A stretch of 64,000 nt of DNA from the NCBI GenBank assembly GCA_030429735.1, contig JAUIET010000002.1:292414-356413 (forward strand), given 5' to 3'. Below the pieces are notes generated by a model. It worked only from the letters and a program-made list of their open reading frames with translations. It did no database searches and had not been told where the DNA came from. Position 1 is the stretch's first letter. Each line of letters starts with the position of its first letter. The DNA is from Gammaproteobacteria bacterium. Its GTDB lineage: Bacteria > Pseudomonadota > Gammaproteobacteria > Pseudomonadales > JAUIET01. Position numbers and translations under genes: made by a program. Positions 9,115-38,880 of this stretch are shown here, piece after piece.

Positions 9115-9139
9115 ACGTCTCCAGTTGCTTCTTTGCGCT

Positions 9140-9153
9140 TTGATTACTATCAA
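9140..9153. promoter_or_regulatory. FNR/Anr-type box, perfect (TTGATtactATCAA)
   Basis: Its centre is 65.5 nt upstream of the DUF211 ATG (9212) and 32.5 nt from ATG 9114 on the other strand. Confidence 0.7.
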
Positions 9154-9211
9154 GTTTATCACCTGACATCATTCTATTCTAAGCCGAAACATATAAAGTG
9201 GTGAGCAGAAA

Positions 9212-9487: not shown

Positions 9488-9491
9488 CACC

Positions 9492-10618: not shown

Positions 10619-10718
10619 CTAGGAATTACTTAGTCTCCTTAAACTGTTGCCAGGTAACAATGGGAATGCAGGCATACCAGCGGTGTGGCAACGCTTCGCT
10701 GATGCATGCGAATTAGCT

Positions 10719-11843: not shown

Positions 11844-12922
11844 ATTTGGGTCAGTATACTGGGCCGCTGTGTCCATTACCCGCAGATCACGCAACGGATG
11901 ATCAGGCAAGAGTGCAACTTGCACACGGTTCTGGTGGACAGCTAAGTACCGTATTGCTGGATAAAATCATCCGCCCAGCGTTTGATAATCCGGTATTGGC
12001 CGAACAGCAAGATGGAGCACTTCTGAATGCGGTAAACTCACCGCTGGCATTTACAACAGACAGTTTCGTGGTTTCACCATTGTTTTTCCCGGGCGGGGAT
12101 ATCGGTAAGCTGGCAGTCATCGGAACTGTGAATGACCTCGCCATGTGCGCAGCTGAACCCTGGGTGTTGAGCTGCAGCTTGATCATAGAAGAAGGTTTGC
12201 CAATACCGCAGTTGCAGAAGATTGTCCAATCCATGGCAGTTGCTGCCCGACAACTTGGTGTCACTATCGTCACCGGTGATACCAAAGTGGTCGAAAAGGG
12301 CAGTGGTGATGGTTTGTTTATCAATACAAGTGGTATTGGAAAACTAACGCACGGCACGCATTGCAAGCCATCACACATTGGTAAAAACGACGTGCTTATT
12401 GTCAATGGTGATATCGGTCGTCACGGTGTGGCGGTGTTGTCGCAACGCCAGGGCCTTGAGTTTGAGAAACCAATTTGCAGCGATTGTCAGGGTCTGGCCG
12501 ACATTGTTCAGAGTTTGCTAGCCAATGACATAAGGCCGAACTGTATGAGAGACCTCACACGAGGGGGATTGGCGGGTAATTTATACGAACTTAGTCTCGC
12601 CAGCGGCTGGGCAATGGAGGTAGATGAGGCGCTGATTCCGGTCGCAGACGACGTTGCCGGCGCGTGTGAGCTGTTTGGAATAGATCCTATCCATGTTGCT
12701 TGCGAGGGCCGGTTTGTAGTGATTGTTGATGCCAGACAAGCGGATGAAACCTTGCGTATCATGAGTGAGCACCCCAGTTGCCCTATGCCCCAGCAGATTG
12801 GCCATGTTAGCGAGCCACTTGGCAACAGAGATGACACAGTTCCATTGGTTCTTCGCAGCAAGATTGGAACCAGGCGTCGTCTGGATCCAATACGGGGGGA
12901 GCCGTTACCTAGAATATGCTAA
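11840..12922 (+). CDS. hypE: hydrogenase expression/formation protein HypE
   Basis: 360 aa with ATGA overlap with hypD. PurM/AIR-synthase-like fold and C-terminal PLPRIC (PRIC motif). Confidence 0.9.
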   Translation: MNLGQYTGPLCPLPADHATDDQARVQLAHGSGGQLSTVLLDKIIRPAFDNPVLAEQQDGALLNAVNSPLAFTTDSFVVSPLFFPGGDIGKLAVIGTVNDLAMCAAEPWVLSCSLIIEEGLPIPQLQKIVQSMAVAARQLGVTIVTGDTKVVEKGSGDGLFINTSGIGKLTHGTHCKPSHIGKNDVLIVNGDIGRHGVAVLSQRQGLEFEKPICSDCQGLADIVQSLLANDIRPNCMRDLTRGGLAGNLYELSLASGWAMEVDEALIPVADDVAGACELFGIDPIHVACEGRFVVIVDARQADETLRIMSEHPSCPMPQQIGHVSEPLGNRDDTVPLVLRSKIGTRRRLDPIRGEPLPRIC

Positions 12923-16042: not shown

Positions 16043-16056
16043 TTGATCTTAATCAA
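16043..16056. promoter_or_regulatory. FNR/Anr-type box, perfect (TTGATcttaATCAA)
   Basis: In the divergent GT4/ATPase intergenic region. Its centre is 132.5 nt from the GT4 start. Confidence 0.65.
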
Positions 16057-16068
16057 ATGCACCTATGT

Positions 16069-16082
16069 TTGATAACCATCAA
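16069..16082. promoter_or_regulatory. FNR/Anr-type box, perfect (TTGATaaccATCAA)
   Basis: Its centre is 67.5 nt upstream of GTG 16143 of the P-type ATPase. It is 26 bp centre-to-centre from the neighbouring box. Confidence 0.7.
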
Positions 16083-16142
16083 ACTAGCTACTGATGAGGT
16101 GCTTCACACTTGTTCAAGGTTTTTGTAGTAGGAAGATACATC

Positions 16143-18812
16143 GTGCCTCGATCAGACTCATCAATCCACGACTGGCATCGATTACCGAGAAAAGACGTTC
16201 TCGCGAAACTGCAGGTTAATCAGCGCAGTGGACTTAGTAATTCTGAGATCGCCAAGCGTAGCCAGCAGTTTGGGGAAAATAGCTTGCCGATCAAAGAGGA
16301 CAGCCATGTACTGTTTTTTTTCCTGCGGCAGTTCCAGGATTTTATGATTGTGGTTTTGTTGCTTGCCGCGTTGGTTGCGGGTCTGGTGGGTGATCCTCAA
16401 GACGCGATCGTTATTCTGGTGATCGTATTGATAAATGCCGTGATCGGTACAGTCCAGCAATATCGCGCTGAAAAGGCGTTAGCGGCGCTTCGCAAAATTT
16501 CGGCACCGGAGGCTATGGTACTGCGTTGCGGACAAAACCGGCGGATACCGGCAAGCGACCTGCTGCCCGGTGATATTGTGCAGCTTGATGACGGCTCTAC
16601 TGTAGCTGCTGATATTCGTTTATTGGAGCTAAGTCAACTGCAGATCGACGAATCCAGTCTGACCGGCGAATCAGTACCTGTTGAAAAACAGGTGAGCGCA
16701 TTGCATGAAGCTGATTTATCCCTGGGTGATCGCAGTAATATGGCCTACAAAGGCACTATTGTTAACCGTGGTCATGGCTTGGGTGTCGTGGTAGCCACTG
16801 GCTCTGATACCGAACTGGGTAAGATAGCCGGCATGTTGGTGCAGAGTGAGCGTGTAAAAACACCTTTGCAGCGGCGCCTCAGCGAGTTCAGTCGACGTTT
16901 GGCGCTCGCTATAATTGTTATATGTGCAGTGATATTCCTTTTCGGATTTCTGCGGGGTGAGCCGGCATTGTTAATGCTGCTAACTGCTGTCAGCCTGGCC
17001 GTTGCAGGTATTCCAGAGGCGATGCCTGCTGTTGTCAGCGTTGCACTCGCACTCGGTGCACGCAAGCTAAGCGGCCTGCGCGCGTTGATGCGTAATTTAC
17101 CGGCAGTGGAAACTCTGGGTTCTATTGACACCATTTGCACAGATAAAACCGGCACGCTCACGCAAAACCATATGCACCTCGCGCGTTGGCTTTCGGCAAC
17201 GAATACCAGTGCGATCAGCTGTGAGCAATTGGCGGACTTGTCGGACGGTCAATATCGAGATCTAAGTGTGCAATGCCTTGCCCTTAGTAATGAAGTCCTG
17301 GAAGCAGATGACGGTAGTCTGCTGGGTGATCCAACTGAAGTAGCTCTGGTGGAAGCGGCCTTGAAAATGGGGGCGAACACGCTATCCCTGCAGAAACAAA
17401 TACCGCGTATAGCTGACCTGCCGTTTACTTCTGAGCGAGGTCGTATGAGTACGCTACATAAAGACCAGTCAGGCGTTCTCCTGTTCTGCAAAGGTGCGCC
17501 AGAAGAATTGCTGGACAGGTGCAGCACATCACTGAATAGCGAAGGCAGACAAGCGATCGATCAGCAGGAATGGTTGGCGCAGGCAGAGAAGCTGGCAAGC
17601 GAGGGATTCAGGGTGCTGGCGCTGGCGTACCGCAGGCTTGGTCAGGTTCCGCCAGGCATGATCGCAGAAGACCTTGAAACTGATCTTGAATTACTTGCGC
17701 TTGTTGGGTTGATTGACCCGCCACGCGATGAGGCTAAAGCCGCGGTGTCAGCATGTCGCCGCGCAGGCATTCGCCCGATTATGATCACCGGTGATCATCC
17801 TGCAACAGCGCAGACAATCGCTTGTGAACTTGGGATTGCTGATGATGACGATCAGGTGCTGAGCGGATCGCAACTGGCTGACTACTCAGATAGTAAGTTG
17901 GCAGATTGTGTTTTGAACACCACTGTTTACGCGAGAGTGAGCGCAGCGCAGAAATATCGTATTGTTGAGGCGTTGCAGGCGCATGGCAAGGTGGTCGCTA
18001 TGACGGGTGACGGTGTTAATGATGCCCCTGCTCTACGGCGCGCGGATATAGGCATCGCCATGGGCATACAGGGAACAGATGTATCTCGCGAAGCTGCGGA
18101 CATGGTGCTGTTGGATGACAATTTCGCGACCATTGTCGCCGCCGTATCAGAGGGTCGTCGGATTTTCGATAATATCCGTAAATTTGTGAAATACACAATG
18201 ACCTCAAACGCAGGAGAAATATGGACTCTTTTTCTGGCGCCTTTTCTCGGCCTGCCCTTGCCGCTCTTACCCATTCATATTTTGTGGATTAATCTGGTAA
18301 CCGATGGCCTGCCGGGACTTAGTCTGACAGTGCAGGCTGCCGAGCCCGGGCTTGATAGCAGACCACCGCGACCTATGAGTGAGTCGATGTTTGCCAATGC
18401 GATGTGGCAGCATATTTTGTTCATGGGTTTATTCATTGCCGCACTTGCTTTATTTACCCAATGGCTTGCAATCGGGCAGTCATGGCATTGGCAGACCATG
18501 GTGTTCAGCGTACTGACTTTCTCTCAGCTAGCGCACGTATTGGTAATACAGCATGATCGTGTATCGCTCTTCAATGCTCAGGCACGCGCTAACCAGCAGT
18601 TGTTTTTGGTAGTATTGGTAACGATTGCTTTGCAGCTGATCATTATATATTTGCCCTTATGCAACGTATGGTTTCACACTCAGCCATTGAGTGCAGTTGA
18701 ACTGAGCTACTGTCTGCTGCTTCCCGCCTTAGTGGTATTGGCGGTAGAATTGGAGAAGTACTTGTTACGCACACTGTCACGATCACCATCAGTGGCTGAA
18801 CAAACGGCGTAA
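16143..18812 (+). CDS. cation-transporting P-type ATPase, type II (SERCA/CtpF-like)
   Basis: TGES, DKTGTLT, MITGDH and GDGVNDAPAL motifs with about 10 TM helices. GTG 16143 (AGGAAG 7 nt upstream) is preferred to TTG 16110, but the start is uncertain. Confidence 0.9.
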   Translation: MPRSDSSIHDWHRLPRKDVLAKLQVNQRSGLSNSEIAKRSQQFGENSLPIKEDSHVLFFFLRQFQDFMIVVLLLAALVAGLVGDPQDAIVILVIVLINAVIGTVQQYRAEKALAALRKISAPEAMVLRCGQNRRIPASDLLPGDIVQLDDGSTVAADIRLLELSQLQIDESSLTGESVPVEKQVSALHEADLSLGDRSNMAYKGTIVNRGHGLGVVVATGSDTELGKIAGMLVQSERVKTPLQRRLSEFSRRLALAIIVICAVIFLFGFLRGEPALLMLLTAVSLAVAGIPEAMPAVVSVALALGARKLSGLRALMRNLPAVETLGSIDTICTDKTGTLTQNHMHLARWLSATNTSAISCEQLADLSDGQYRDLSVQCLALSNEVLEADDGSLLGDPTEVALVEAALKMGANTLSLQKQIPRIADLPFTSERGRMSTLHKDQSGVLLFCKGAPEELLDRCSTSLNSEGRQAIDQQEWLAQAEKLASEGFRVLALAYRRLGQVPPGMIAEDLETDLELLALVGLIDPPRDEAKAAVSACRRAGIRPIMITGDHPATAQTIACELGIADDDDQVLSGSQLADYSDSKLADCVLNTTVYARVSAAQKYRIVEALQAHGKVVAMTGDGVNDAPALRRADIGIAMGIQGTDVSREAADMVLLDDNFATIVAAVSEGRRIFDNIRKFVKYTMTSNAGEIWTLFLAPFLGLPLPLLPIHILWINLVTDGLPGLSLTVQAAEPGLDSRPPRPMSESMFANAMWQHILFMGLFIAALALFTQWLAIGQSWHWQTMVFSVLTFSQLAHVLVIQHDRVSLFNAQARANQQLFLVVLVTIALQLIIIYLPLCNVWFHTQPLSAVELSYCLLLPALVVLAVELEKYLLRTLSRSPSVAEQTA

Positions 18813-25439: not shown

Positions 25440-25453
25440 TTGATTACGATCAA
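25440..25453. promoter_or_regulatory. FNR/Anr-type box, perfect (TTGATtacgATCAA)
   Basis: Its centre is 86.5 nt upstream of ATG 25533. Confidence 0.65.
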
Positions 25454-25478
25454 TATGTTTTGCTCACTGCGAACTACG

Positions 25479-25500
25479 CTAGTGTCCCTTACCATAAGTC
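25479..25500. repeat. solo copy of the MITE terminal repeat (20 of 22 nt)
   Basis: CTAGTGTCCCTTAcCATAAGTc compared with the left TIR CTAGTGTCCCTTAACATAAGTT at 40931. Confidence 0.55.
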
Positions 25501-25532
25501 ACAATCCGGTATTAACTCTTCGGGAGAAATCT

Positions 25533-25844
25533 ATGAACAATGAAGTGAAAGAAATGGGTAATGACGCTGTCGAGCGAATCAAGAAAGAATATCGTGACAG
25601 CGTTGATTTTCTTCGCCGTGAACGCGACGAAATCAAGCTTAAAATCCATCTTGGAAATGCCGAAATCCGTGATCAATGGGATGAAGTCGAAAAGAAATGG
25701 GAACACTTTCAAGCACGTGCAGAGATTGTAGGGAGAATTACAAAAGATTCAGCCAAAGAAGTAGGGGAGGCGAGCAAGATAGTTGGTGAGGAGCTAAAAA
25801 ACTCCTATCGACGAATTCGCGACAGCCTTGGTACCAATCGTTGA
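25533..25844 (+). CDS. small charged coiled-coil protein, hypothetical
   Basis: 103 aa from ATG 25533. Lys/Glu-rich amphipathic helices and no motif recognised. Confidence 0.5.
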   Translation: MNNEVKEMGNDAVERIKKEYRDSVDFLRRERDEIKLKIHLGNAEIRDQWDEVEKKWEHFQARAEIVGRITKDSAKEVGEASKIVGEELKNSYRRIRDSLGTNR

Positions 25845-25857: not shown

Positions 25858-25873
25858 CTGGCAACAGTGCCAG
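25858..25873. terminator. short hairpin between convergent genes (CTGGCA-acag-TGCCAG)
   Basis: 6-bp perfect stem between the stops at 25844 and 25882. There is no strong U-tract. Confidence 0.25.
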
Positions 25874-25881: not shown

Positions 25882-26580
25882 TTACTCTTTGCTCCAATGT
25901 TCGATGAGAGACGCGATATCCCTGTTGTATTGCCGGTAGAGTCGATCAAATTTGCGCTTATATTCTTTGCCGATATTAACGCCTTGAATATTGAAGTTGT
26001 GAACTTTCCAAACGCCGCTCTCATTGCGATGTAAGTTGTAAATAATGATATTTGGCTCGCTCGGTCCGCCAAAAACGTACTGAGTTACATTTATTTCTTT
26101 TGCACCTTGCTTTGCGTATTTTGGGTAGCGCACTTCCGTTCGTTTACAGCAAAAGAAGAACAGAGCATTTCCGTAGGCTTTAGCAATTGCTTCATGGATC
26201 AGGGTGGTGAATTGTTCGATCTGACTGGCAGATGCATACATGTCGTCGTTTCTGCTTTTCTGGAGCGCTGAGTTCATTATACCCAGGCTCAATGCCTCAA
26301 AATTAGTCACTTCGCCTAGTGCGCTTCCAATCTGCTGGTAGTATCTTTCCGGTTCGTTTTCATAGTAGTGTTTTGCGCCCAATGCCAGCTGTATCGTGCG
26401 CTCTGCGGTGCGCTCAACAAGGTTGAATGCTTCAGCAATGGTCTGTTGTTCAGGGTCGGTTGTGGCGGCTAACGTGTGGAAAGTGATTGACAACAGCGTA
26501 CAGAAGACCCCGAGTATTGCGGCTATGCGATGAATTACACTGGGTTTTAATGTTGTGGTCACTATGCGCCCTCCGTACAA
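25882..26580 (-). CDS. second MlaC/Ttg2D-like periplasmic lipid-binding protein
   Basis: About 230 aa with signal/anchor. The C-terminal part resembles the MlaC at 26897..27601 (e.g. GEWKLRNLTIENINLG vs GVWKVHNFNIQGVNIG). The start could instead be GTG 26562. Confidence 0.6.
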   Translation of the reverse strand: MYGGRIVTTTLKPSVIHRIAAILGVFCTLLSITFHTLAATTDPEQQTIAEAFNLVERTAERTIQLALGAKHYYENEPERYYQQIGSALGEVTNFEALSLGIMNSALQKSRNDDMYASASQIEQFTTLIHEAIAKAYGNALFFFCCKRTEVRYPKYAKQGAKEINVTQYVFGGPSEPNIIIYNLHRNESGVWKVHNFNIQGVNIGKEYKRKFDRLYRQYNRDIASLIEHWSKE

Positions 26581-26897
26581 GCAGTTGACTCGTGCTTGTT
26601 ATCCGCTGTTGATAATATGGTTTGAAGGCCGCTGACCGTGATCATGCCACTAAGACATCTTGGAACATTTATATACCGTACTGGTTTACCTAAGGCGGCA
26701 GCGGTACGTTGCCACGAAAGCAAAAGCGCAATGCCTGCGCTGCTTGCATAACTGACTTCAGACAGATCAATAACAATACTGCCTGCAAATGAGTCCAATA
26801 ATCTCTCACCTTTGTCTTTCAATTCTATCACCGAATCAGCGGTGAGCTTGCCGGTTAGCAATGCAATGCGATCTTCACCGCAGGTAATATCGGCCAT
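26562..26897 (-). CDS. mlaB: STAS-domain protein MlaB
   Basis: 111 aa, STAS-like, in the canonical position after mlaC. Confidence 0.7.
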   Translation of the reverse strand: MADITCGEDRIALLTGKLTADSVIELKDKGERLLDSFAGSIVIDLSEVSYASSAGIALLLSWQRTAAALGKPVRYINVPRCLSGMITVSGLQTILSTADNKHESTACTEGA

Positions 26898-27601
26898 CAG
26901 GTTTCCCCGTCAGATGATGCGCCATCGATTCGGGATTGCGCGCTTGAGACCGCCCAGTTATCGATCACAGCGTCTATGTCGCCATTGAAACGCTTGTATT
27001 CGCTGGCAAATTGCTCGCGAAATATTTTGCCAAGATTGATGTTCTCGATGGTTAGATTGCGGAGCTTCCACTCGCCCAGCCTGTTTTTTCGAAACTTGTA
27101 TTGCACGCGGTAGGGCTCTGCGCGATCTCCAAATATGTATTGGGTAATTATGTTACTTGGCCTCTGTAAAGTTTCCCGCGGCTTGTTGACCTCAATCTTT
27201 TCACCGCTGAATTTCATTAAACCTTTTGCATAGGTCTCGATCAGTCCCTGCTTGAAACGTTGACTGAAACGCTGTACTTGCGAATTCAGCCTGGCTTGTT
27301 GTTCTGGGTTGAGTCCAGCCATAGCTGACTTGCTTGCATACACTCCCATTACGCTGCGCGAGAACGAATAGAAGTCAGTAATGCCGCTGAGAATCAGGTC
27401 AATTTGCTGGTGAAATTCGTCAGGGTATTGTTCGTAGCGTGGTCGCGCCCGTTCAATTTGCTTGATTATCTGGTCCGTAGTTTCAAGGACAATTGTGTAT
27501 GGGCTTTGCGCGGTCTGCGCTGACGTGACAGTAATCCAGCTGAAAGTCACTATCAGTAGTACAATCTGCACAGCATTACTTTGCGTTGGGTTGAATTGCA
27601 C
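26897..27601 (-). CDS. mlaC: phospholipid-binding periplasmic protein MlaC (Ttg2D)
   Basis: 234 aa with a signal peptide. Ttg2D-like sequence in mlaFEDCB gene order. Confidence 0.8.
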   Translation of the reverse strand: MQFNPTQSNAVQIVLLIVTFSWITVTSAQTAQSPYTIVLETTDQIIKQIERARPRYEQYPDEFHQQIDLILSGITDFYSFSRSVMGVYASKSAMAGLNPEQQARLNSQVQRFSQRFKQGLIETYAKGLMKFSGEKIEVNKPRETLQRPSNIITQYIFGDRAEPYRVQYKFRKNRLGEWKLRNLTIENINLGKIFREQFASEYKRFNGDIDAVIDNWAVSSAQSRIDGASSDGET

Positions 27602-27606
27602 GGTGC

Positions 27607-28071
27607 CTACTCCTTTTCAGACAGGCTCGAGAACGCCCGACTGATCATGTCTTCCAGAATATGCGCTGACTGAGTGTCTTCAATGTGACCGCCGTCATTC
27701 AGTTCATCCATGCTGCCGCCCAGGCTGATGCTGATAAACTTGTCCCCCAGCAGACCGCTTGTTTGTATTGACGCGATGCTGTCATCAGGCAATTTACCCA
27801 CGTCCTCAAAAATTTTCATTGTGACCAGCGCTCTATAGCTGAGGGTATCGAGCTCAATATCAGACACCCTGCCAACGACTACGCCGGAGATGGATACTTT
27901 GGCTCGCTCGTGCAGATCAGAGACATTATCGAAGCTGGCGGTTAGTTGATAGGTTGGTCTGGAATTGCTCATAGTGATACCACTCACTTTAAAAGCCATT
28001 AGGGTAAGTGCAACTGCACCACCAACAATGAACAATCCGACCGAAATTTCAGTCATTCGATTCAAGGGCAT
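27607..28071 (-). CDS. mlaD: MCE-domain protein MlaD
   Basis: 154 aa with an N-terminal TM anchor and an MCE domain (VSISGVVVGRVSDIELD). Confidence 0.9.
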   Translation of the reverse strand: MPLNRMTEISVGLFIVGGAVALTLMAFKVSGITMSNSRPTYQLTASFDNVSDLHERAKVSISGVVVGRVSDIELDTLSYRALVTMKIFEDVGKLPDDSIASIQTSGLLGDKFISISLGGSMDELNDGGHIEDTQSAHILEDMISRAFSSLSEKE

Positions 28072-28853
28072 CAGAATTCTCCAAACATCATGGCAGTCAA
28101 TATCAAATCAAATCCAAGTATGGCCAGGGATGAAAACACGACCGTTCGCGTAGTAGACGACGCAATACCCTCAGAATTTGGCCGGGTGACAAAACCCTGA
28201 TACACAGCAATCCAGGATACCAGTACCCCGAACACGACGGACTTAATGATGCCATTGATAACATCTTCACCAAAATCAACTGCCTCTCTTGTGTTAGACC
28301 AATAGGCACCAGGATCCACACCAAGCAAATCAATACTCACCCATGCACCACCGAAAATAGCAAAGACGTTAAACAACAGCGCCAGAACAGGCATACTGTA
28401 AATTCCGGCCCACAGGCGAGGGCTAACAACGCGTCGCAGTGGGTCAACACCAATCATTTCCAGCGACGATAGTTGCTCGGTTGCTTTCATCAGTCCAATT
28501 TCAGATGTAATTGCTGAGCCGGCACGACCGGCAAACAATAGTGCGGTGACCACTGGCCCCAGTTCTCTTAGCATCGACAGCGCGATAAGCTGGCCGAGTG
28601 CGTCTGTTGTTCCGAACTTTGAGAGTATTGTATAACCCTGCAACGCCAGTACCATGCCAATGAACAACCCCGAAACAACAATAATAACGACAGATCGAAT
28701 GCCAAGCTGACTGATTTGCTTGATCAGTAAAGGAAACGTTGCTATGAACTGCGGTTTGGCTACGATCGTGCGAAATAGAAAAATGCCCGACCTACCCAGT
28801 GAGGCGCATGCGTCAATTCCCGTTTTACCCAGCGATTGAAGGTAATTTGTCAT
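28071..28853 (-). CDS. mlaE: ABC permease MlaE
   Basis: 260 aa from ATG 28853 (MTNYLQSLGKTG...). The track ORF extension to 28931 overlaps mlaF. Confidence 0.9.
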   Translation of the reverse strand: MTNYLQSLGKTGIDACASLGRSGIFLFRTIVAKPQFIATFPLLIKQISQLGIRSVVIIVVSGLFIGMVLALQGYTILSKFGTTDALGQLIALSMLRELGPVVTALLFAGRAGSAITSEIGLMKATEQLSSLEMIGVDPLRRVVSPRLWAGIYSMPVLALLFNVFAIFGGAWVSIDLLGVDPGAYWSNTREAVDFGEDVINGIIKSVVFGVLVSWIAVYQGFVTRPNSEGIASSTTRTVVFSSLAILGFDLILTAMMFGEF

Positions 28854-28857
28854 ATGC

Positions 28858-29670
28858 CTAATTAGCCAATAACCGTAAGTCCTGTGCATAGCTGACCGCA
28901 GGATAATGAAAAGGCACTGGGCCATCCGCAAGTCCTTGAATAAACTGTTGAACCTGCTGGGAATCGTTACGTTTTAGGTCAGCTGGGCTACCGTGTGCGA
29001 TAACGTGGGTATCAGAAACAATGTACATATAGTCAGCGATAGCTGCGGTCATGTCGATATCATGTGAGACGATAATGCTGGTCAAGCCAAGTGCGTCGTT
29101 CAGTAAACTGATTAAACGTACGATCACGCCTTTGGAGATTGGATCTTGTCCGGCGAACGGCTCATCGTACATGATGATATCCGGATCAAGAGCGATTGCC
29201 CGCGCCAGTGCAACTCTACGCTGCATGCCTCCAGACAACTCAAATGGCATCATGTTTTTGGCTCCTCTTAGGCCAACTGCTTCAAGTTTCATTAACACGA
29301 TGTCGTTTAACATGTCTTCGGGAAGGGATGTGTGCACACGTAATGGAAAGGCGATGTTTTCGAAAACATTAAGGTCGGTAAACAGTGCACCACTTTGAAA
29401 CAACATACCCATCCGGGCCCTGAGGGTCAGCAAGTCTCTGCGCTTTAGCGTCGCAAGGTTATGTCCGTCAACGATTACCTGACCACCATTGTCAGCCAGA
29501 AGTTGGCCGCCTATCAGTTTCAGTAACGTTGTTTTGCCCGAACCGCTTGGCCCAAATATGGCAGTGATCTTCCCTCGCTCAATATTCAAACTTACGCTGT
29601 CGTAGATTTGGCGAGCGCCAAAACTGAAGCTCACATCGTGAAACTGAATAAGCGGTTGTTCATTCATCAC
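28858..29670 (-). CDS. mlaF: ABC ATPase MlaF
   Basis: 270 aa with Walker A GPSGSGKTT, signature LSGGMQRRVALARA and Walker B IIMYDEP. Confidence 0.9.
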   Translation of the reverse strand: MMNEQPLIQFHDVSFSFGARQIYDSVSLNIERGKITAIFGPSGSGKTTLLKLIGGQLLADNGGQVIVDGHNLATLKRRDLLTLRARMGMLFQSGALFTDLNVFENIAFPLRVHTSLPEDMLNDIVLMKLEAVGLRGAKNMMPFELSGGMQRRVALARAIALDPDIIMYDEPFAGQDPISKGVIVRLISLLNDALGLTSIIVSHDIDMTAAIADYMYIVSDTHVIAHGSPADLKRNDSQQVQQFIQGLADGPVPFHYPAVSYAQDLRLLAN

Positions 29671-29678
29671 TAAGCTGG

Positions 29679-31151
29679 CTATTCTAGTTCTGAGCCTGAG
29701 ATAGTTGCCCTAGACGCTATTTTTTTAAAAGATTTCTGCAAGTAAGCAGCGAGCAGATCAACATCGGGAACGATGTCTCGGTCGGCTTGTATTGCCCAGC
29801 ATAGCTTGCCATCATAGCTAAGAACACCGATACACATGCCAACTTCGCCAATCAGAGGTGCAAGCGGGTAGCAGCTCAGCATCCTGGCACCACAGATGTA
29901 CATAGCTTGTTGAGGCCCGGGTACGTTCGTTACGTAACTGTTGATAGGACCGGCAGCGGATTCCATTGTGCTGGATAACATTCCTGGCATAAACTGGATC
30001 AGGGATGATAAGAGCTTTATCCCGGAAGATTGTGCTTTTTTGTTCAGATGTCGTGTTTGTTTTGAGATGCTTTCAAGCTGTTTTGTCAGGCGCGATTCTG
30101 ATACAGGTAGCTCGAGCATTACGATAGATATTTCGTTGTGTGGTTGCGGCTTATCATCAGCGTGCTCGGCTCGTAGATTCACCGGCATGCCGATTCGAAA
30201 CGATCCGGAGCGCAGATCGAATTTCTTGTGCTGCAGAAAGCGTCGTATTGCTTGTGTTGCAACCAGTAAAACTACGTTATTGATCGTTGTATTATGGTGA
30301 CACTTGATCCGCTTAACGTCCTCTAGCGAAACTTCAAGACACGCTACTCGTCGATGTGAGCCAACCTTGCCGTTAAGTGGAGTATCGGAACGCTGATGCT
30401 TCATTTTGTCGGCAAACAATTCCGCCATAGACGTGGTCGACGTTTTGAGTTCATTCAGTGCATGTAATGGGTTCAGGAACAAACGTACGCTTTCTTTAGC
30501 AGCATCGATAGACCAATCCAGCTTTTGCTGGCGAATAGCACGACGCAAATCGTTCGGCCTCGGCGCGGCACGTGGATGATAGATCGGTGGGCGCTTGGGC
30601 TGACTCTGCTGGTCAAATGACAACAGGTGCTGAGCAAGCTCAACACTGGCAATACCATCTGCCATGCAGTGATGAATTTTGAACAGAATTGCAAAGCGGT
30701 TTTCCGAGAGCCCTTCAATAACCCAGGTTTCCCACAGCGGCCGGTCACGGTCCAGTGTATGAGACATGATTTCAGCTACGAGTGTATGCAGTTGATGCTC
30801 AAGCCCTGGTCTTGGCACGCTGGCATGGCGGAGATGGTAATCCAGCTCAAAATCCGGGTCGTCAACCCACACCGGTGGTTCGGTCTGGAATCGCTCTAAC
30901 CAGGTTTCCAAATGCACTGAGTGATCAGTGCCCACTGGCCACAGTAGTTTTTGGCGATAGCGCGGCACATGATGCATAACGCTCGCGAAGCATTTTCTTA
31001 AGGTCCCGAAATCTATGCCGCCTTTATGTGTGCGCAGCTTACCACTTCTAAAAATAGCAAGCCCCGCAACATGCATGGGCAAATTCGCGCGCTCAATGGC
31101 CAGAAATCCATAGTCAGTAAGGCTTAATGGTTCAAAGTGAAATTGCCGCAT
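29679..31151 (-). CDS. wax ester synthase/diacylglycerol acyltransferase (WS/DGAT)
   Basis: 490 aa from ATG 31151 with the HHCMADG (HHxxxDG) active-site motif. Its stop is 8 nt before the mlaF start. Confidence 0.85.
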   Translation of the reverse strand: MRQFHFEPLSLTDYGFLAIERANLPMHVAGLAIFRSGKLRTHKGGIDFGTLRKCFASVMHHVPRYRQKLLWPVGTDHSVHLETWLERFQTEPPVWVDDPDFELDYHLRHASVPRPGLEHQLHTLVAEIMSHTLDRDRPLWETWVIEGLSENRFAILFKIHHCMADGIASVELAQHLLSFDQQSQPKRPPIYHPRAAPRPNDLRRAIRQQKLDWSIDAAKESVRLFLNPLHALNELKTSTTSMAELFADKMKHQRSDTPLNGKVGSHRRVACLEVSLEDVKRIKCHHNTTINNVVLLVATQAIRRFLQHKKFDLRSGSFRIGMPVNLRAEHADDKPQPHNEISIVMLELPVSESRLTKQLESISKQTRHLNKKAQSSGIKLLSSLIQFMPGMLSSTMESAAGPINSYVTNVPGPQQAMYICGARMLSCYPLAPLIGEVGMCIGVLSYDGKLCWAIQADRDIVPDVDLLAAYLQKSFKKIASRATISGSELE

Positions 31152-31191
31152 TGTTACTGTGCGTGAAGCTCTAGTGGGTGGAATACAGCTC

Positions 31192-31737
31192 TTATTTCTT
31201 GCTTGGAAACTCAACCAAAATTGACCGAACAATATCCTCTACCGCCTCGCGAGAGTCGCGCCGATCATCCAGTCTCAGAGGGCGTTGAGCCCAACCACGC
31301 CAACGGGGTTCGCCAGTTTCTCCATCGAACACATCAACAGCGACAAATCCGGTGGTATGAACACGCTCCCGTTTCTCCACAACAGTGTCATTGGTGTGAT
31401 AACGGCCTGGAAAGTATATGGTCTCATCAACAACTTGCTGAGTACTGACGACGATGCTGATGTAAAAATCAATGTATTCCCCGGTCTCAAAATATTCGTA
31501 GCCCGCTCGCTCAAACCCGGCCCGAACCTGCGCTTGCAGCTCTGCTGTCATTAGCGGGCTTATGGTTTGACTGTCGTCATACACCAGAACTGGAGAAGAA
31601 TGTAACCAGCTGAACGAGGAATACTGTGACAGGGTGCTTTCCTCGATATAACACTCCGAGCCGGATTGCATGCCTGCACAGGCGCAAACGAACAGCACGC
31701 ACATCAATCCCAATACCCGCTTGCAGTGTTTACGCAT
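31192..31737 (-). CDS. DUF4136-like lipoprotein
   Basis: 181 aa with a lipobox-like LFVCAC after a signal peptide. The C-terminal part resembles DUF4136 (VAVDVFDGETGEPRWRGWA). Confidence 0.6.
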   Translation of the reverse strand: MRKHCKRVLGLMCVLFVCACAGMQSGSECYIEESTLSQYSSFSWLHSSPVLVYDDSQTISPLMTAELQAQVRAGFERAGYEYFETGEYIDFYISIVVSTQQVVDETIYFPGRYHTNDTVVEKRERVHTTGFVAVDVFDGETGEPRWRGWAQRPLRLDDRRDSREAVEDIVRSILVEFPSKK

Positions 31738-31798
31738 AACTCACTTCCTCCATGCAGTTCTTCGTTTAATAGTATTAACCCGCTCGGTGAGTTTCGCA

Positions 31799-31812
31799 TT
31801 GATAGCGATCAA
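31799..31812. promoter_or_regulatory. FNR/Anr-type box, perfect (TTGATagcgATCAA)
   Basis: Its centre is 68.5 nt upstream of the DUF4136 lipoprotein start (31737). This is the only obvious promoter element ahead of the 5.9-kb lipid operon. Confidence 0.7.
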
Positions 31813-31836: not shown

Positions 31837-32631
31837 TCAAGATACCAGAACAATGGTACATGGCATGCTGTTTAGCAGATCTTTATAGTGTTGCTCGGCC
31901 AGAATTGAACTGTCGCGGGAAACAATCAATAAATCGTCAGGTGATAGTCGCTCAGAAGACAATGTTTCGTTTCCGGCAAGACTATAACCATTTTTTAGCT
32001 GATGCTCGTCTTTGCCTTCTTCCAGAAGTTTATCGACCTGCTGCTGCAGTTTATCGCGGGCGGCCTGTTCAACCTCAGGTAATACGAGAGTCATTCTGAT
32101 GTTCTGAGCCTGCGCCAGTCTTCGAGCAAACACCAGCGCCCTGCTGGCGCCTGGGGAGCCGTCATAGAAGAGTTGTACCGATCCGATGTTGGACTTGGGA
32201 TACAAGCCAAGAGCTCTGTTGTAGCTTCTTTGTTTAAGCCTGCAGAGAAAGGCGATATCAGCGTGCAGGGACGCGTCGAGTGCTTCAAATAGATAATTCC
32301 CGCGAACTGTTCTGGCAACAACTTCAATTTGGTGTTGCTGGGCGAGCTGCTCCAACATTTGGCGGGATCGCATTGAACGCAGTTTCAGCGCACGATCAAC
32401 ATGGGCTTTATCCAGTGGGCGAACCTGTCCGGATATTCGATCGATTTCAATCGAGAACGGCAAATCTGCCATTCGCACAAGATCAAGATCTTCCACCAGC
32501 AATGCATGCAGTTGAGAATTAAATCGTCTGGCCATCAAAATAGCGTTTTCAATCACGGCCTGATACGGTGCTGTGGTGTCAACAACCAGTAGTACGCTGT
32601 TCTTTTCCGTATCATTGTTACCGATGTTCAT
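31837..32631 (-). CDS. hypothetical protein, possibly a degenerate tandem USP-like (alpha/beta) protein
   Basis: 264 aa from ATG 32631, overlapping the protease stop by 14 nt. Beta-strand/helix pattern (VLLVVD..., LHALLVED, VQLFYDGSPGA, CTIVLV) without the USP ATP-binding glycine motif. Confidence 0.45.
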   Translation of the reverse strand: MNIGNNDTEKNSVLLVVDTTAPYQAVIENAILMARRFNSQLHALLVEDLDLVRMADLPFSIEIDRISGQVRPLDKAHVDRALKLRSMRSRQMLEQLAQQHQIEVVARTVRGNYLFEALDASLHADIAFLCRLKQRSYNRALGLYPKSNIGSVQLFYDGSPGASRALVFARRLAQAQNIRMTLVLPEVEQAARDKLQQQVDKLLEEGKDEHQLKNGYSLAGNETLSSERLSPDDLLIVSRDSSILAEQHYKDLLNSMPCTIVLVS

Positions 32632-35023
32632 TTGACTCTCTTTTAGACGCAAAAGTGGCCCGAGCCAGCGCGAATCGATTGATGCTCTCCTGTACCAATG
32701 CGTTGACACTGTTTACCGTAAACTGCTCACCAATCAGTTCACCTGCTTCCACGCCGGTGAGCAGTTCTATTGCCTGGTCAACTGTTTCAACGGCATACAC
32801 TTTGAATTCACCTCGATCTACTGCCTCAACCACGTCATTGCGAAGCATTAGATGCCGCACATTTGATGCGGGAATCACCACTCCCTGGCCGTCAACCAGC
32901 CCTCGTAACTTGCACACATCGTAAAAACCTTCGATCTTCTCGTTAACGCCACCAATTGCCTGCACTTTGCCGTGTTGGTTTACCGAGCCGGTCATCGCAA
33001 AGCATTGCTTGATGGGTAGCTTTGACAATGCTGAGAGCAGGGCACACAGCTCGGCAAGAGAAGCGCTGTCTCCATCAACGCCACCGTAGCTCTGCTCAAA
33101 CACCAGACTGGCTGCAAGTGACAATGGAACCTCTTGGGCGTAGCGCGAACCAAGAAACCCCGAGAGAATCAGTACGCCTTTGGAATGTAACGCGCCACCC
33201 AGTTCCGTTTCGCGTTCAATATCTACAATATTGCCAGTGCCCAGGCGAACCGTGGCCGTTATTCGCGAGGGTTGACCGAATGTGAAAGTACCCAGTTGCA
33301 GTACTGACAGCGCGTTCACCTGGCCAATCTGAGCTCCATCAGTATCAATTAGCACCGTTCCCTGGTGTATGTTTTCGTATAGGCGTGCTCGAATACGATC
33401 GGCTCTGTATATTCGCTGGTCAATCGATTTCTGTACATCTGCACGTCCGATGGTGTCGCGGCCGGCCTGGCGCGCCCAATAATTCGATTCGCGGACCAAT
33501 TCGTCGATACTGCGCATATGGGTTGTCAGCTTCTCTCCGTCCCCAGCCATTCGCGCCGATTGATCAACAATTCTTGATAGGCCGGAACCGTCAATGGATA
33601 GCAGCTGCTCCTCATTTGCCAACCGGGTTACCATATTCGCCAACAAAGTGGCGTTCTCGGGATTTCGATCAATACGATCATCAAAATCTGCGGACACTTT
33701 AAACAGATCCGGAAACTCCGGGTCGTAAGCGTTTAACAGGTAGTAGAGGTGGCGCTCGCCGACAAGGACAACCTTGAGCGCAAGAGGGATGGGCTCTGGC
33801 TCGAGACTCACGGTACTCACAAAACCGTATCGATTTTCCAATGATTCGATTCTAATTTCGTTTGACTTTAGCGCTCTTTTCAAACTGTCGTAAGCAAGTG
33901 GCTGCATAAGCAGCTGCCTGGCATCCAGCACCAGATAGCCACCGTTCGCGTGATGCAGGGCGCCTGGCTTCACCAGGGTAAAGTCTGTATGCAGCGTGCC
34001 CATATGGGCAACATGTTCGGCCCTTCCCATCAGATTGGCGTGCGTGGGCAAGTTTTCCTCTACGACTTGTGCGCACTGATTACTTGACTGATCAACCAGA
34101 GTATTGACCTCATAGCGACGCAACACACTTTGCTCACTTTCACCAAAAGCGAACGTCATTTCCTGTGGTGAACGTGGTCTAAAGTCCGCAAAGTTTGCAA
34201 TCACGTCTGTCTCAACGTCGCTCAGGTATTGCTGTAAGCAATCAAGCCCGTGAAAATCTTGTTTGAGCGCGGAAATAGAATGATGGATTGCCAGCTGTGC
34301 GGTTTGCTCATTCAGCGCTCTGATTTTCTGGCCAAGTTCTTTCTTCCATAAGGGGAACTTGCGCACCAGTTTCTGTAACTTGGGCTGCAGTTCCTCAATT
34401 GCAGCCTGAATTTCTTGCTGCTCGTGCTCCTGCAACTGTTCGTACTGTTCTGGCGAAATCACCTCAGAATTTTTATTCAGTGGCGCAAACCCGTAGCCCG
34501 CGGGCGTTTGAATCATGCCAATTTTTTTCTCGCGTGCTTCTTTTGCTATCTTTTCCAGTTCACGCGCTTGGCGCGCCTCCACTTCCTCACCCAATTCAGT
34601 TACTTTTGCCTGATGTTCCTCCGAATCAAACGCAGCCACTATCGCGATCTTCAGCTCCTCCATCAACTGAGACATCGCCGACTTCAGCGCCATGCCTTGA
34701 CCAGTCGGCAATTGCAATAGAGTAGGCTTGCTGGGGTTCTGGAAGTTATTGACGTAGCAACAATCCATGGCCGGCGGCTTTCCCGCTACATCGTTTGCCA
34801 GCATCTGCTTGACGGCCTGCAGCATGCCGCTGCCGGATTGTCCAAGTACGAAAATGTTATAGCCATCGCCACTCATGCCCATGCCAAAGCGCAAGGAATC
34901 TTCTGCGCGCTGATGACCCAGGAGCAGGTTCGAATTGGCTGTTGATTCAACAACCGTGTTGAATTCGTCCTCAGTGGTACGTCTGCAGAGCGCTTCAGCG
35001 GGTAGTGGATGCAATGTGTTCAT
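32618..35023 (-). CDS. Lon-family protease with degenerate AAA-like domain (LonC-like)
   Basis: 801 aa. The P-loop position reads GQSGSGM with no Lys. A long coiled-coil insertion is present. The C-terminal S16 protease domain has MTGSVNQHGKV...GGVNEKIEG (Ser-Lys dyad context). Confidence 0.8.
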   Translation of the reverse strand: MNTLHPLPAEALCRRTTEDEFNTVVESTANSNLLLGHQRAEDSLRFGMGMSGDGYNIFVLGQSGSGMLQAVKQMLANDVAGKPPAMDCCYVNNFQNPSKPTLLQLPTGQGMALKSAMSQLMEELKIAIVAAFDSEEHQAKVTELGEEVEARQARELEKIAKEAREKKIGMIQTPAGYGFAPLNKNSEVISPEQYEQLQEHEQQEIQAAIEELQPKLQKLVRKFPLWKKELGQKIRALNEQTAQLAIHHSISALKQDFHGLDCLQQYLSDVETDVIANFADFRPRSPQEMTFAFGESEQSVLRRYEVNTLVDQSSNQCAQVVEENLPTHANLMGRAEHVAHMGTLHTDFTLVKPGALHHANGGYLVLDARQLLMQPLAYDSLKRALKSNEIRIESLENRYGFVSTVSLEPEPIPLALKVVLVGERHLYYLLNAYDPEFPDLFKVSADFDDRIDRNPENATLLANMVTRLANEEQLLSIDGSGLSRIVDQSARMAGDGEKLTTHMRSIDELVRESNYWARQAGRDTIGRADVQKSIDQRIYRADRIRARLYENIHQGTVLIDTDGAQIGQVNALSVLQLGTFTFGQPSRITATVRLGTGNIVDIERETELGGALHSKGVLILSGFLGSRYAQEVPLSLAASLVFEQSYGGVDGDSASLAELCALLSALSKLPIKQCFAMTGSVNQHGKVQAIGGVNEKIEGFYDVCKLRGLVDGQGVVIPASNVRHLMLRNDVVEAVDRGEFKVYAVETVDQAIELLTGVEAGELIGEQFTVNSVNALVQESINRFALARATFASKRESNEHR

Positions 35024-36213: not shown

Positions 36214-38880
36214 ATGACAATTAGAAACCTGGATGCTGCGTTCAAACCCTCGTCGGTTGCACTTATAGGGGCAAGCGAGAAACTCGGCTCTGTAGGACGC
36301 GCGCTGGCCGAAAACCTGATAAAGGATTTCGAAGGGCCGGTTTATCTGCTTAACCCTGAGTATGGGCAACTGTTTGGGCTTGATGGTTACCCGGAGCCAG
36401 GCGCTTTGCCGGAGGTGCCAGATTTAGCGATCATTGCCACACCACCCCAATCGGTACCCGAGCTAATTGCCAAGCTCGCTAAAGTTGGTACCCGGGCTGC
36501 GTGTGTGATAACAGCGGGTATTGACGAAGGCAATGGGCTGCGGCAAGCAATGCTGGAAGCTGCACGACCGCAGCTAATGCGTATCATTGGACCGAACTGC
36601 CTGGGCCTGCAAGTGCCCGGTCGAGGCCTCAATGCCAGCTTTGCGCCGTTCATGCCGAAAAATGGCTCACTCGCATTTATTGCCCAATCGGGGGCAATGA
36701 TTACTGCGGTGTTGGATTGGGCTCAACCGAGGAACATTGGTTTTTCGTGCACTGTATCAATGGGCGATATGACTGACGTTGATTTCGGCGATATGCTCGA
36801 TTATCTCGCCAATGATCGAGACACCAGCGCGATACTTCTGTACATGGAACACATAACACATGCGCGCAAATTTATGTCAGCAGCTAGAGCAGCCAGTCGC
36901 AGCAAACCGGTGATTGTTGTGAAGGTTGGGCGCTTCGAGGCGGGAGCGCGTGCTGCTGCTTCTCATACCGGTGCACTGGCCGGCATTGATGGCGTCTACG
37001 ACGCCGCTTTTCGTCGTGCAGGCATGCTTCGAGTGTTAACCTTGGAAGAGTTATTTGATGCTGTAGAGACGTTGGCATCGGCCCGATACCCCTCGGGAGA
37101 AAAACTCGCCATACTCACCAATGGTGGGGGTATTGGCGTAATGGCAATAGACGCGCTGGTCGCCGACGGCGGTCAGGCGGTAGCGCTTTCACAACAATCT
37201 ATTGATTCGCTGGACAAAGTCTTGCCATCGATCTGGTCCAGAGCCAACCCCGTTGACATATTAGGTGATGCTACAGCTGATCGGTACCGTAGTGCGCTGA
37301 ATGTTCTGCTGGATGATGATGATTTTGATGGCGTACTGGTCATGAATTGCCCAACCGCACTTGCCGGTTCAGAAGACGCAGCCAATGTCGTGATCGAGCA
37401 GGCACACCAGCAAGTTAAAAAGACACTTTTGACGTGCTGGGTTGGCGAGCAGTCAGCACAGTGTTCCAGGAGTAAGTTCCGAGAGCATCGCATACCTACC
37501 TATGATTCACCTGAAGATGCCGTGCACGCGTTTACTCAAATGGTCGACTATAGGCGCAATCAACAAAGCTTGCGCGAAACACCCCCCTCAATGCCGGAAT
37601 TATTCCTGCCTGACACCGCAAGCGCAGCAGTCCAGATCGACAATGCATTGGATCGGGAGCGCGAATGGTTGACCGAATTTGAGTCGAAGTGTGTGCTGCA
37701 AGCATATGGTATTCCAACGGTGACGACACATATTGCAACAACGCCGCAAGCAGTTGCTGATATTGCGAGGGGCTATGACAGTTTACTTGTGATCAAAATT
37801 GTCTCGGCGCAGATACCGCATAAGTCTGATGTTGGTGGTGTGTGTCTTGATGTCGACCCTCGTTTCGCTGGTGAAGTGGCAAAGGCCATGCTACAACGTC
37901 TGCGCACATCTCGACCCGATGCCATATTGGAAGGTTTCAGCGTGCAGGCAATGGTTCGCAAGCCTTTCGGTAGAGAGTTGCTGGTTGGCATGGTTAATGA
38001 TCGGCAATTCGGGCCAGTTATATTGTTTGGTCAGGGAGGCACGGCAGCCGAACTCGTCAACGATAAATCACTGGCCCTGCCACCACTCAACCTGAAACTG
38101 GCCAGAGAACTCATTTCTCGTACTCAAGTCAGTAAATTGTTGCGCGGCTATCGAAACATGCCTGCCGCGAATATGCATGAGCTGGAAATGGTTCTTGTAC
38201 GTTTGTCTCAGCTGGTCATTGATTTGCCAGCCATTGAGGAACTGGATATTAATCCTTTACTGGTCGACGACTCGGGCGTTGTCGCATTGGATGCGCGCAT
38301 AAAAGTCCTGGAAACCGAATTAACTGGAGCTGATCGGCTTTGCATTCGACCGTACCCAAAACAGCTTGAAGAGAGCGTCCGGCTGAATGACGGAAGCGAG
38401 CTGATGCTGCGGCCAATTGTGCCTGAGGACGAAACAGAGTTAAGGGAAGCGTTCGGTAGACTGACAGAGGAAGAAGTGCGGTTTAGATTTTTTACCCCCA
38501 TGAAATTTCTGAACCATATTAATGCTGCTAGATTTACCCAGATTGACTACGATCGACAGATGGCGTTGGTACTAACAGAGCATGGGGTCAGAGGTAAAAC
38601 AAAGATCTTTGCTGTGGTGCGGCTTGTCGAGGACCCTGACAGAGCACGTGCGGAGTTCGCGATTGTAGTCGACCATACTCTGGCGGGCCAGGGTCTCGGG
38701 ACGCACCTTATGAAGCGTATTCTAACGTACGGGCGTGAGCGTGGCATCGGTGAAGTTTTCGGTGACGTACTTTGGGATAACCAGCGAATGCTAGCGTTGT
38801 GTAAAGAACTTGGATTTGTCAGCGTCAGGTCATCGGAATCGCCGGGTGTGGTTCGTGTCAGTAAGAAATTGATTCTATAG
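36214..38880 (+). CDS. patZ: PatZ/YfiQ-type protein acetyltransferase (CoA-binding + ATP-grasp acyl-CoA-synthetase-like + C-terminal GNAT)
   Basis: 888 aa with N-terminal CoA-binding fold, a central ATP-grasp-like region and a C-terminal GNAT with the AGQGLGTHLM motif. Length and architecture match E. coli PatZ. Confidence 0.8.
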   Translation: MTIRNLDAAFKPSSVALIGASEKLGSVGRALAENLIKDFEGPVYLLNPEYGQLFGLDGYPEPGALPEVPDLAIIATPPQSVPELIAKLAKVGTRAACVITAGIDEGNGLRQAMLEAARPQLMRIIGPNCLGLQVPGRGLNASFAPFMPKNGSLAFIAQSGAMITAVLDWAQPRNIGFSCTVSMGDMTDVDFGDMLDYLANDRDTSAILLYMEHITHARKFMSAARAASRSKPVIVVKVGRFEAGARAAASHTGALAGIDGVYDAAFRRAGMLRVLTLEELFDAVETLASARYPSGEKLAILTNGGGIGVMAIDALVADGGQAVALSQQSIDSLDKVLPSIWSRANPVDILGDATADRYRSALNVLLDDDDFDGVLVMNCPTALAGSEDAANVVIEQAHQQVKKTLLTCWVGEQSAQCSRSKFREHRIPTYDSPEDAVHAFTQMVDYRRNQQSLRETPPSMPELFLPDTASAAVQIDNALDREREWLTEFESKCVLQAYGIPTVTTHIATTPQAVADIARGYDSLLVIKIVSAQIPHKSDVGGVCLDVDPRFAGEVAKAMLQRLRTSRPDAILEGFSVQAMVRKPFGRELLVGMVNDRQFGPVILFGQGGTAAELVNDKSLALPPLNLKLARELISRTQVSKLLRGYRNMPAANMHELEMVLVRLSQLVIDLPAIEELDINPLLVDDSGVVALDARIKVLETELTGADRLCIRPYPKQLEESVRLNDGSELMLRPIVPEDETELREAFGRLTEEEVRFRFFTPMKFLNHINAARFTQIDYDRQMALVLTEHGVRGKTKIFAVVRLVEDPDRARAEFAIVVDHTLAGQGLGTHLMKRILTYGRERGIGEVFGDVLWDNQRMLALCKELGFVSVRSSESPGVVRVSKKLIL

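Follow-up and report, generated by a model that had tools for sequence, protein, structure and literature searches.

A cluster of eight consecutive genes on the minus strand of a gammaproteobacterial contig (JAUIET010000002.1, assembly GCA_030429735.1) places a predicted neutral-lipid synthase and an Mla-type lipid transporter behind a single FNR/Anr-type box. The cluster spans positions 25882-31812 of the 64,000-nucleotide (nt) stretch of DNA that was analysed, referred to here as the window, and reads in the order box, DUF4136 lipoprotein, wax ester synthase/diacylglycerol acyltransferase (WS/DGAT), mlaF, mlaE, mlaD, mlaC1, mlaB and mlaC2, as assigned from an open reading frame (ORF) list together with Pfam and NCBIfam (Table 1). 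An earlier interpretation of the same DNA from its letters, termed here the sequence-only reading, had given this gene order and the perfect FNR-type box at 31799, and all eight genes were found as it described them. The genes very probably constitute one operon of ~5.9 kb, co-transcribed under the control of an FNR/Anr-type regulator. The explanation preferred here, which is given a probability of about one half, is that of an FNR/Anr-activated lipid-homeostasis operon built from two modules and situated within a low-oxygen island. All of the parts are of known kinds (Mla, WS/DGAT and FNR/Anr-type promoter); it is their combination that is new to the literature searched and to ~165 other WS/DGAT loci.

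Co-transcription is the most likely arrangement because the junctions are tight, a single well-placed and conserved box precedes the cluster, and the block seems to move as a whole. The DUF4136 and WS/DGAT genes are separated by 37 nt (the 40 nt of the sequence-only reading if the stop codon is counted), and the WS/DGAT stop lies 8 nt from the mlaF start, as that reading had stated. Further downstream, 4 nt separate the mlaF stop from the mlaE ATG, mlaE and mlaD overlap by 1 nt (ATGA), mlaD and mlaC1 are 5 nt apart, and mlaC1 overlaps mlaB by 1 nt. The mlaB and mlaC2 genes likewise share 1 nt at a GTG located behind GGAGGG, or 19 nt if an upstream TTG is the start. This GTG agrees with a 226-amino acid (aa) database protein (P0121), and the mlaE ATG is backed by the gene call in a related locus (L003) and by tblastn. 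A consensus scan for promoters and terminators returned fewer sites than were found in shuffled sequences and none in the intergenic junctions of the cluster, in keeping with the earlier claim that no such element lies inside; on the minus strand within the WS/DGAT gene, the scan found no sigma-70-like site. Moreover, the junction RNAs fold no better than shuffled controls, and Rfam identifies no RNA family in the window. A small hairpin between the convergent gene ends beyond mlaC2 may mark the end of the operon, its folding being indistinguishable from that of shuffles (z-score −0.07). A terminator after mlaC2 or at the internal junctions was considered and rejected, as this insignificant hairpin was the only one found. 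The single apparent operon proposed in the sequence-only reading is thus upheld by the tight junctions and by the recurrence of box and gene order in a second organism.

The box is not a chance occurrence, given that the window contains 12 perfect copies of TTGAT-N4-ATCAA, whereas shuffling predicts 0.10 ± 0.33. With one mismatch allowed, 22 are observed and 3.2 expected. All 12 perfect boxes (at 9140, 10605, 14577, 16043, 16069, 25440, 31799, 35555, 40886, 42137, 42251 and 53107) are located at the 5ʹ ends of genes, 35-200 nt upstream of the start codon with two artificially extended ORF starts disregarded. The one that heads the cluster sits in a spacer of ~100 nt between an upstream gene for a protein resembling universal stress proteins (Usp) and the DUF4136 gene, the ATG of which is preceded by a GGAGG Shine-Dalgarno sequence. 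The hexamer AATACT follows the box by 22 nt. In L003, a better hexamer (CATAAT) occurs at the same 22 nt, and the 14-mer box is identical, its spacer included, inside flanks that have diverged; a second perfect box lies 54 nt further upstream. In geometry, and in geometry only, this spacing corresponds to a class II FNR promoter, which has its box centred at about −41.5 and a −10 hexamer without a −35 element; the transcription start would accordingly be at approximately 31762-31764. Perfect boxes are also present upstream of the WS/DGAT orthologs in two more distant relatives (L001 and L004). The published consensus of Anr sites is TTGATNNNNATCAA (PMC12071387), and the same review describes Anr and FixK sites as similar (PMC12071387).

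Comparison of relatives from the WS/DGAT side indicates that the arrangement recurs. Database matches to the enzyme comprise one identical protein (P0001, 100%), followed by proteins of 72%, 59% and 58% identity, and all others are at or below 44%. The 72% relative, L003, carries DUF4136-WS/DGAT-mlaF-mlaE up to the end of its contig, and a second contig from the same sample (L085) begins in mlaE and continues with mlaD-mlaC-STAS-mlaC2; since they come from one sample and their mlaE fragments abut, the two are taken to be one operon. Across L003 and L085, identities to the window proteins are 77% for DUF4136, 72% for WS/DGAT, 80% for MlaF and 82-93% for MlaE, and in L085 they are 82% for MlaD, 72% for MlaC1, 48% for MlaB and 61% for MlaC2. 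One flank carries HMG-CoA reductase and the other GSH-S/RimK-like, MATCAP and FGase genes, so that both differ from those in the window. The same block within different flanks suggests that it moves or behaves as one unit. The possibility that the adjacency is an oddity of one strain, which the sequence-only reading had allowed for, is accordingly set aside by the shared order in L003/L085.

More distant orthologs retain the box without the transporter. L001, with an ortholog of 57-58% identity, has a similar island (HypD 49%, HypE 44%, AAA_33 51% and GDH 76% identity), in which positions 8440-10000 hold a perfect box, a 52-codon DUF4136 remnant, DnaJ-like and MerR_2 (CbpA/CbpM-like) genes and WS/DGAT, with no mla genes after it; this looks like decay or rearrangement of an ancestral module. 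In L004 (59%), a perfect box is located 151 nt upstream of the gene and a patatin gene adjoins it, again with no mla genes. Nothing related was found near the WS/DGAT gene of L002 (44% identity). Among 80 genome loci with distant WS/DGAT proteins (at most 35% identity, mostly Actinomycetota), none has an MlaE, MlaD, MlaC or DUF4136 neighbour. Likewise, in 80 metagenome loci retrieved with an alignment of the WS/DGAT clade (28-49% identity, with one short fragment at 54%), neither an Mla or DUF4136 neighbour nor a perfect box was found. The synteny that the sequence-only reading had proposed for survey therefore extends to a second lineage and stops there, being absent from the 57-59% orthologs and from the 160 distant loci.

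Viewed from the Mla side, the transporter belongs with a group of operons that lie outside the usual surroundings. The best MlaD matches beyond L085 share 61-64% identity. Of the two among these with a visible context, L086, a Pseudomonadales metagenome-assembled genome, has mlaFEDCB alone among non-canonical neighbours, with no WS/DGAT, second mlaC, DUF4136 or box, and L169 has mlaFED followed by a gene that the end of the contig cuts short (probably mlaC); no WS/DGAT precedes these genes, and their context is likewise non-canonical. The Oceanospirillaceae locus L087, by contrast, is canonical (rpoN-lptBAC-kdsD / mlaFEDCB-bolA-murA-hisGDC). The window operon lacks this housekeeping synteny, having neither a divergent kdsD-lptCAB-rpoN upstream nor bolA/ibaG-murA downstream, and its MlaC1 is 47% identical to the MlaC of L086 and only 27% identical to that of L087. 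Because its nearest relatives (L086 and L169) are also non-canonical and its MlaC1 is nearer to that of L086, the Mla module is placed in a sub-lineage outside the housekeeping neighbourhood, which is no proof that it is an extra copy.

These comparisons bear on a simpler explanation, in which an ordinary housekeeping mlaFEDCB operon is transcribed from a promoter of its own within the last part of the WS/DGAT gene and the FNR-controlled DUF4136-WS/DGAT pair came to lie in front of it by chance, with no functional link beyond read-through. Such incidental adjacency would account for the MlaE and MlaD scores, which lie above the curated thresholds for canonical Mla proteins, for the high identity to the canonical-context operon of L087 (63% for MlaF, 58% for MlaE and 51% for MlaD) and for the WS/DGAT orthologs of L001 and L004 that lack mla. 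It is nonetheless unlikely. The WS/DGAT-mlaF junction leaves no room for an intergenic promoter (8 nt in the window and an overlap of 1 nt in L003), the WS/DGAT gene contains no sigma-70-like site on the minus strand, and the canonical flanking genes are absent. Furthermore, the block is intact in two organisms despite their unlike flanks, and it includes an extra MlaC2 that is limited to this lineage.

MlaC2 is a component with few relatives. Its identity to MlaC1 is 29%. Only four family members were recovered from 5.8 billion proteins by a word-indexed search, and beyond its own cluster no sequence exceeded 31% identity when 1.84 billion cluster representatives were searched exhaustively with HMMER. 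A recent duplication of mlaC is rejected on the strength of these two identity values. A metagenome scan with the MlaC2 alignment found no relative. Of the "duplicated" periplasmic carrier in the sequence-only reading, the second MlaC overlapping the end of mlaB stands and a recent duplicate does not. The orthologs are strongly conserved, above all in ALFFFCCK and in a C-terminal HNFxIQGVNIGKEYKRKFDRLYR block. Since these orthologs are so well conserved and only distant relatives exist outside them, MlaC2 is, as a prediction, a real, constrained and lineage-specific carrier on an isolated branch of the MlaC family. The ALFFFCCK motif places two adjacent cysteines in a periplasmic protein and is invariant in all four known orthologs.

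Family scores separate the Mla proteins into two groups. MlaE and MlaD exceed their curated cut-offs, while the NCBIfam equivalog cut-offs are not reached by MlaF, MlaB or either of the MlaC proteins; MlaF and MlaB are clear matches to Pfam ABC_tran and STAS_2. Both MlaC proteins carry signal peptides by inspection and score above the PF05494 cut-off of 26 bits (97.1 for MlaC1 and 57.8 for MlaC2). Against the E. coli-type MlaC equivalog NF011697, MlaC1 reaches 23.9 bits with a cut-off of 195, and MlaC2 has no match. Among solved structures, both are closest to the Pseudomonas phospholipid carrier Ttg2D, the best matches of MlaC1 being 4fcz (4e-28) and 6hsy (9e-20). No MlaA (VacJ) domain was detected in a scan of nearly all ORFs of at least 110 aa in the window.

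The other module consists of the lipoprotein and the acyltransferase. By its curated family score, the WS/DGAT is a member of the two-domain acyltransferase family, with predicted rather than assayed activity, and H161, H162, D166 and G167 are invariant in a four-sequence alignment of its clade. It has no signal peptide, and its products are therefore expected to form on the cytoplasmic side. No fatty acyl-CoA reductase occurs among the window ORFs scanned for domains, so the product is not assignable as either triacylglycerol (TAG) or wax ester. The lipobox Cys20 of the DUF4136 protein is kept in its ortholog (LLSAC, with the AC(20)AG segment conserved). This protein has no sequence relative among solved structures, and its family is uncharacterised in the literature searched.

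A more ambitious proposal, which extends the idea in the sequence-only reading of a machine moving acyl donors or neutral lipid, is that the operon encodes a dedicated neutral-lipid machine, in which MlaC2, perhaps docking on DUF4136 as an outer-membrane lipoprotein, carries diacylglycerol, triacylglycerol, wax ester or fatty alcohol through the periplasm and so exports the products of WS/DGAT or imports its substrates under low oxygen. Fatty acids and sterols enter actinobacterial cells through MCE-type transporters, and neutral lipids leave some marine gammaproteobacteria by a route that is not known. Consistent with the proposal, MlaC2 forms an isolated and strongly conserved branch, and where its context is available it occurs only in WS/DGAT-linked operons; L086, the single complete related operon without WS/DGAT, lacks both MlaC2 and DUF4136. 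That correlation, however, is one of co-occurrence across three informative loci. Both MlaC proteins most resemble the phospholipid-binding Ttg2D, MlaE and MlaD score as ordinary Mla proteins, and a WS/DGAT without a signal peptide would release its products on the cytoplasmic side. AlphaFold models of MlaC2 (predicted local distance difference test score, pLDDT, 50 from a 4-sequence alignment) and of DUF4136 (pLDDT 40 from a single sequence) are too poor for the reading of binding cavities. A dedicated neutral-lipid machine is on balance quite improbable.

The lipid-homeostasis operon preferred here would instead have arisen by the head-to-tail fusion, in the lineage of the window, of two modules. 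The first would be the box-controlled DUF4136-WS/DGAT pair, a conserved island member in relatives, and the second a complete mlaFEDCB in a non-canonical context that gained the lineage-specific MlaC2. A class II promoter dependent on an FNR/Anr-type regulator would drive the whole. Glycerolipids would pass from one membrane to the other through the Mla system, with return to the inner membrane as the simplest direction, and acyl chains would be deposited in storage lipid by WS/DGAT acting at the cytoplasmic face. Lipid homeostasis would in this way be co-ordinated at growth arrest, with box-controlled patatin-type enzymes providing turnover. Oxygen control, the direction of transport and metabolic coupling are each inferred.

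Several points weigh against this explanation. The WS/DGAT-mla linkage is phylogenetically narrow, occurring in the window and one relative lineage only, and neighbourhood support is thin. Co-transcription, the transcription start and oxygen dependence are all predictions. If this is the only mla operon of the genome, purely FNR-dependent expression would be odd, and an unrecognised internal promoter would then be likely. The transport direction of Mla systems is itself a matter of debate in the literature searched. Additionally, the window yielded no full-length gene for an FNR/Anr regulator, and a different member of the CRP/FNR family could act at the box, for example one that is Dnr-like or FixK-like. 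Control by a signal other than oxygen, whether nitric oxide or redox through a Dnr/FixK-like protein or a general stress/stationary-phase regulon, would suit a TTGAT-N4-ATCAA motif common to several CRP/FNR-family regulators and a window in which the only candidate is a 153-aa ORF (86-547) predicted to bind cyclic nucleoside monophosphates, yet it is very unlikely in the company of Usp, NiFe hydrogenase and maturation genes, cytochrome c and a P-type ATPase, which match low-oxygen regulons (Anr, lxa and DosR).

Table 1. Features of the eight-gene cluster and its boundaries (positions in the window)
Feature	Position	Strand	Evidence or remark
FNR/Anr-type box TTGATCGCTATCAA, perfect	31799..31812	-	Centre 68.5 nt upstream of DUF4136 ATG
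Predicted -10 hexamer AATACT	31771..31776	-	22 nt 3ʹ of box; sequence reading
DUF4136 lipoprotein, 181 aa	31192..31737	-	PF13590 8e-16; lipobox Cys20, Ala at +2
WS/DGAT, 491 aa, HHCMADG	29679..31154	-	PF03007 1.3e-61, PF06974 5e-25; TIGR02946 366.4 bits (cut-off 309.95)
MlaF-type ABC ATPase	28858..29670	-	Best NCBIfam match MlaF NF008809, 391.5 bits, under cut-off of 441
MlaE permease, ATG at 28853	28071..28853	-	NF033619 379.6 bits (cut-off 315)
MlaD, single MCE domain	27607..28071	-	TIGR04430 167.2 bits (cut-off 135)
MlaC1, Ttg2D-type periplasmic lipid carrier, signal peptide	26897..27601	-	PF05494 1e-27
MlaB-like STAS protein	26562..26897	-	PF13466 2e-16; NF033618 30.7 bits, under cut-off of 90
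MlaC2, second, divergent MlaC-family carrier, signal peptide, ALFFFCCK	25882..26562	-	PF05494 2e-15; GTG start
Small hairpin CUGGCA-CUGU-UGCCAG, no U-tract	25858..25873	-	Between convergent gene ends

Most of the window probably represents a low-oxygen island in a gammaproteobacterium (GTDB Pseudomonadales in the broad sense) that is probably marine. Domain scans identified five Usp-domain genes, a NiFe hydrogenase with hypF, hypD and hypE, and cytochrome c, in addition to a PAS histidine kinase, Trx2, DUF389, OmpW and a P-type ATPase with two boxes. Usp and energy-stress genes are clustered here with a common palindrome at their 5ʹ ends, the pattern by which such an island is recognised. The neighbours of the operon itself are Usp and LonC-like genes to one side and, to the other, a small gene with a box before it. 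On the first side, the Usp-like gene (31837-32709) and the gene for a LonC-like protease (32618-35023) form an overlapping pair directly upstream, with a one-mismatch box at 35059. Only 24 nt, containing no terminator, separate the Usp-like stop from the box of the operon, and read-through is possible. On the other side, the small ORF at 25440-25844 (plus strand) has a perfect box at 25440, encodes ~104 aa from an internal ATG and converges on the end of mlaC2, with 37 nt between the stop codons. It has no informative family match; a sub-threshold Pfam match was obtained with the full 134-aa ORF only.

Two further genes of the island connect it to lipid metabolism. These are paralogous DUF3336-patatin genes at 12919-14385 (minus strand) and 53214-54629 (plus strand), and a separate perfect box precedes each of them (at 14577 and 53107, respectively). 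The combination of DUF3336 and patatin is the architecture of fungal triacylglycerol lipases. Lipolysis by these patatin-type enzymes may be co-regulated with WS/DGAT, and their box-preceded position fits oxygen-controlled turnover of neutral lipid.

Elsewhere in the window, the genes of a soluble-type NiFe hydrogenase, including its NAD/FeS subunits, are distributed together with hycI, hypF, hypD and hypE over two blocks (525-6644 and 10647-12922), and a box at 10605 lies between the cytochrome c gene and hypD. A pair of perfect boxes with a spacing of 26 nt (16043-16082) is located upstream of the P-type cation ATPase (16110-18812), which is divergent from a GT4 glycosyltransferase gene; a cation ATPase also belongs to the lxa and DosR regulons. 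Downstream of Trx2 and the box at 35555, positions 36214-38880 (plus strand) encode an 888-aa fusion of an ADP-forming acetyl-CoA synthetase-like protein and GNAT, the architecture of Pat-type protein acetyltransferases. The gene at 51040-51474 (minus strand) encodes a member of the F420H2-dependent quinone reductase family (PF04075, 1.5e-40), which occurs mainly in Actinobacteria and is therefore unexpected in a gammaproteobacterium-like context.

The sequence-only reading had called the arrangement undescribed, and the literature searched agrees: none of its papers ties Mla to WS/DGAT or to wax-ester synthesis, the terms wax ester and MlaD do not occur together in any relevant paper, and a survey of WS/DGAT gene clusters makes no mention of Mla, ABC transporters or lipoproteins (PMC10351704). 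If the linkage is functional, the operon offers a natural system for asking whether the cargo of Mla-type machines can extend beyond bulk phospholipid, why two different periplasmic carriers are needed, and how envelope lipid turnover and storage-lipid synthesis are coupled when respiration fails. Were the neutral-lipid proposal true, this would be the first Mla/MCE-type machine to move neutral lipid across a Gram-negative envelope, with transport coupled directly to a WS/DGAT that makes or consumes the cargo. A gammaproteobacterial low-oxygen island of the kind proposed would place a TAG/wax-ester synthase and putative lipases under a hypoxia regulator, as in the DosR regulon.

Among known systems, the closest to the transporter is the Mla/Ttg2 pathway (ttg2ABCDE), with which the window shares the F-E-D-C-B order, translational coupling, a Ttg2D-like MlaC1, and MlaE and MlaD proteins above curated family cut-offs. 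Unlike that pathway, the window operon follows WS/DGAT and DUF4136 behind an FNR-type box and has a second MlaC after it, while the rpoN-lpt-kdsD / bolA-murA neighbourhood is missing and no mlaA was found among the window ORFs scanned. In the MCE importers (actinobacterial Mce1/Mce4 and plant TGD1-3), an MCE protein, an MlaE-like permease and an ABC ATPase similarly move hydrophobic lipids toward the cytoplasmic membrane. They differ in having several Mce proteins or in operating in plastids, they lack a soluble MlaC shuttle, and they are not known to be co-transcribed with WS/DGAT.

The acyltransferase resembles the AtfA/Tgs family in its two domains and HHxxxDG motif, and differs from the other WS/DGAT loci examined (~165) in being predicted to share an operon with an Mla transporter. 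Its placement in a putative low-oxygen regulon with multiple Usp genes recalls the Mycobacterium tuberculosis DosR regulon and its hypoxia-induced Rv3130c (tgs1). The host here, however, is a gammaproteobacterium, and the regulator would be of the FNR/Anr type. Rv3130c is listed among M. tuberculosis dormancy genes (PMC5309233), and wax-ester synthesis has been linked to dormancy (PMC3522743). The island finds its nearest counterpart in the lxa locus of Burkholderia cenocepacia, which comprises 50 genes with 17 motif sites and many Usp genes (PMC3721108). Like the lxa locus and the Anr regulon, the window is a multi-gene island with many Usp genes, a cation ATPase and a recurring FNR/Anr-like palindrome. 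Its motif, in contrast to the TGA-N6-TCA of the lxa locus, is the full 5-4-5 FNR consensus, and its host lineage is a different one. What sets its content apart from both is WS/DGAT-mla, together with two patatin-type lipases, a NiFe hydrogenase and a LonC-like protease.

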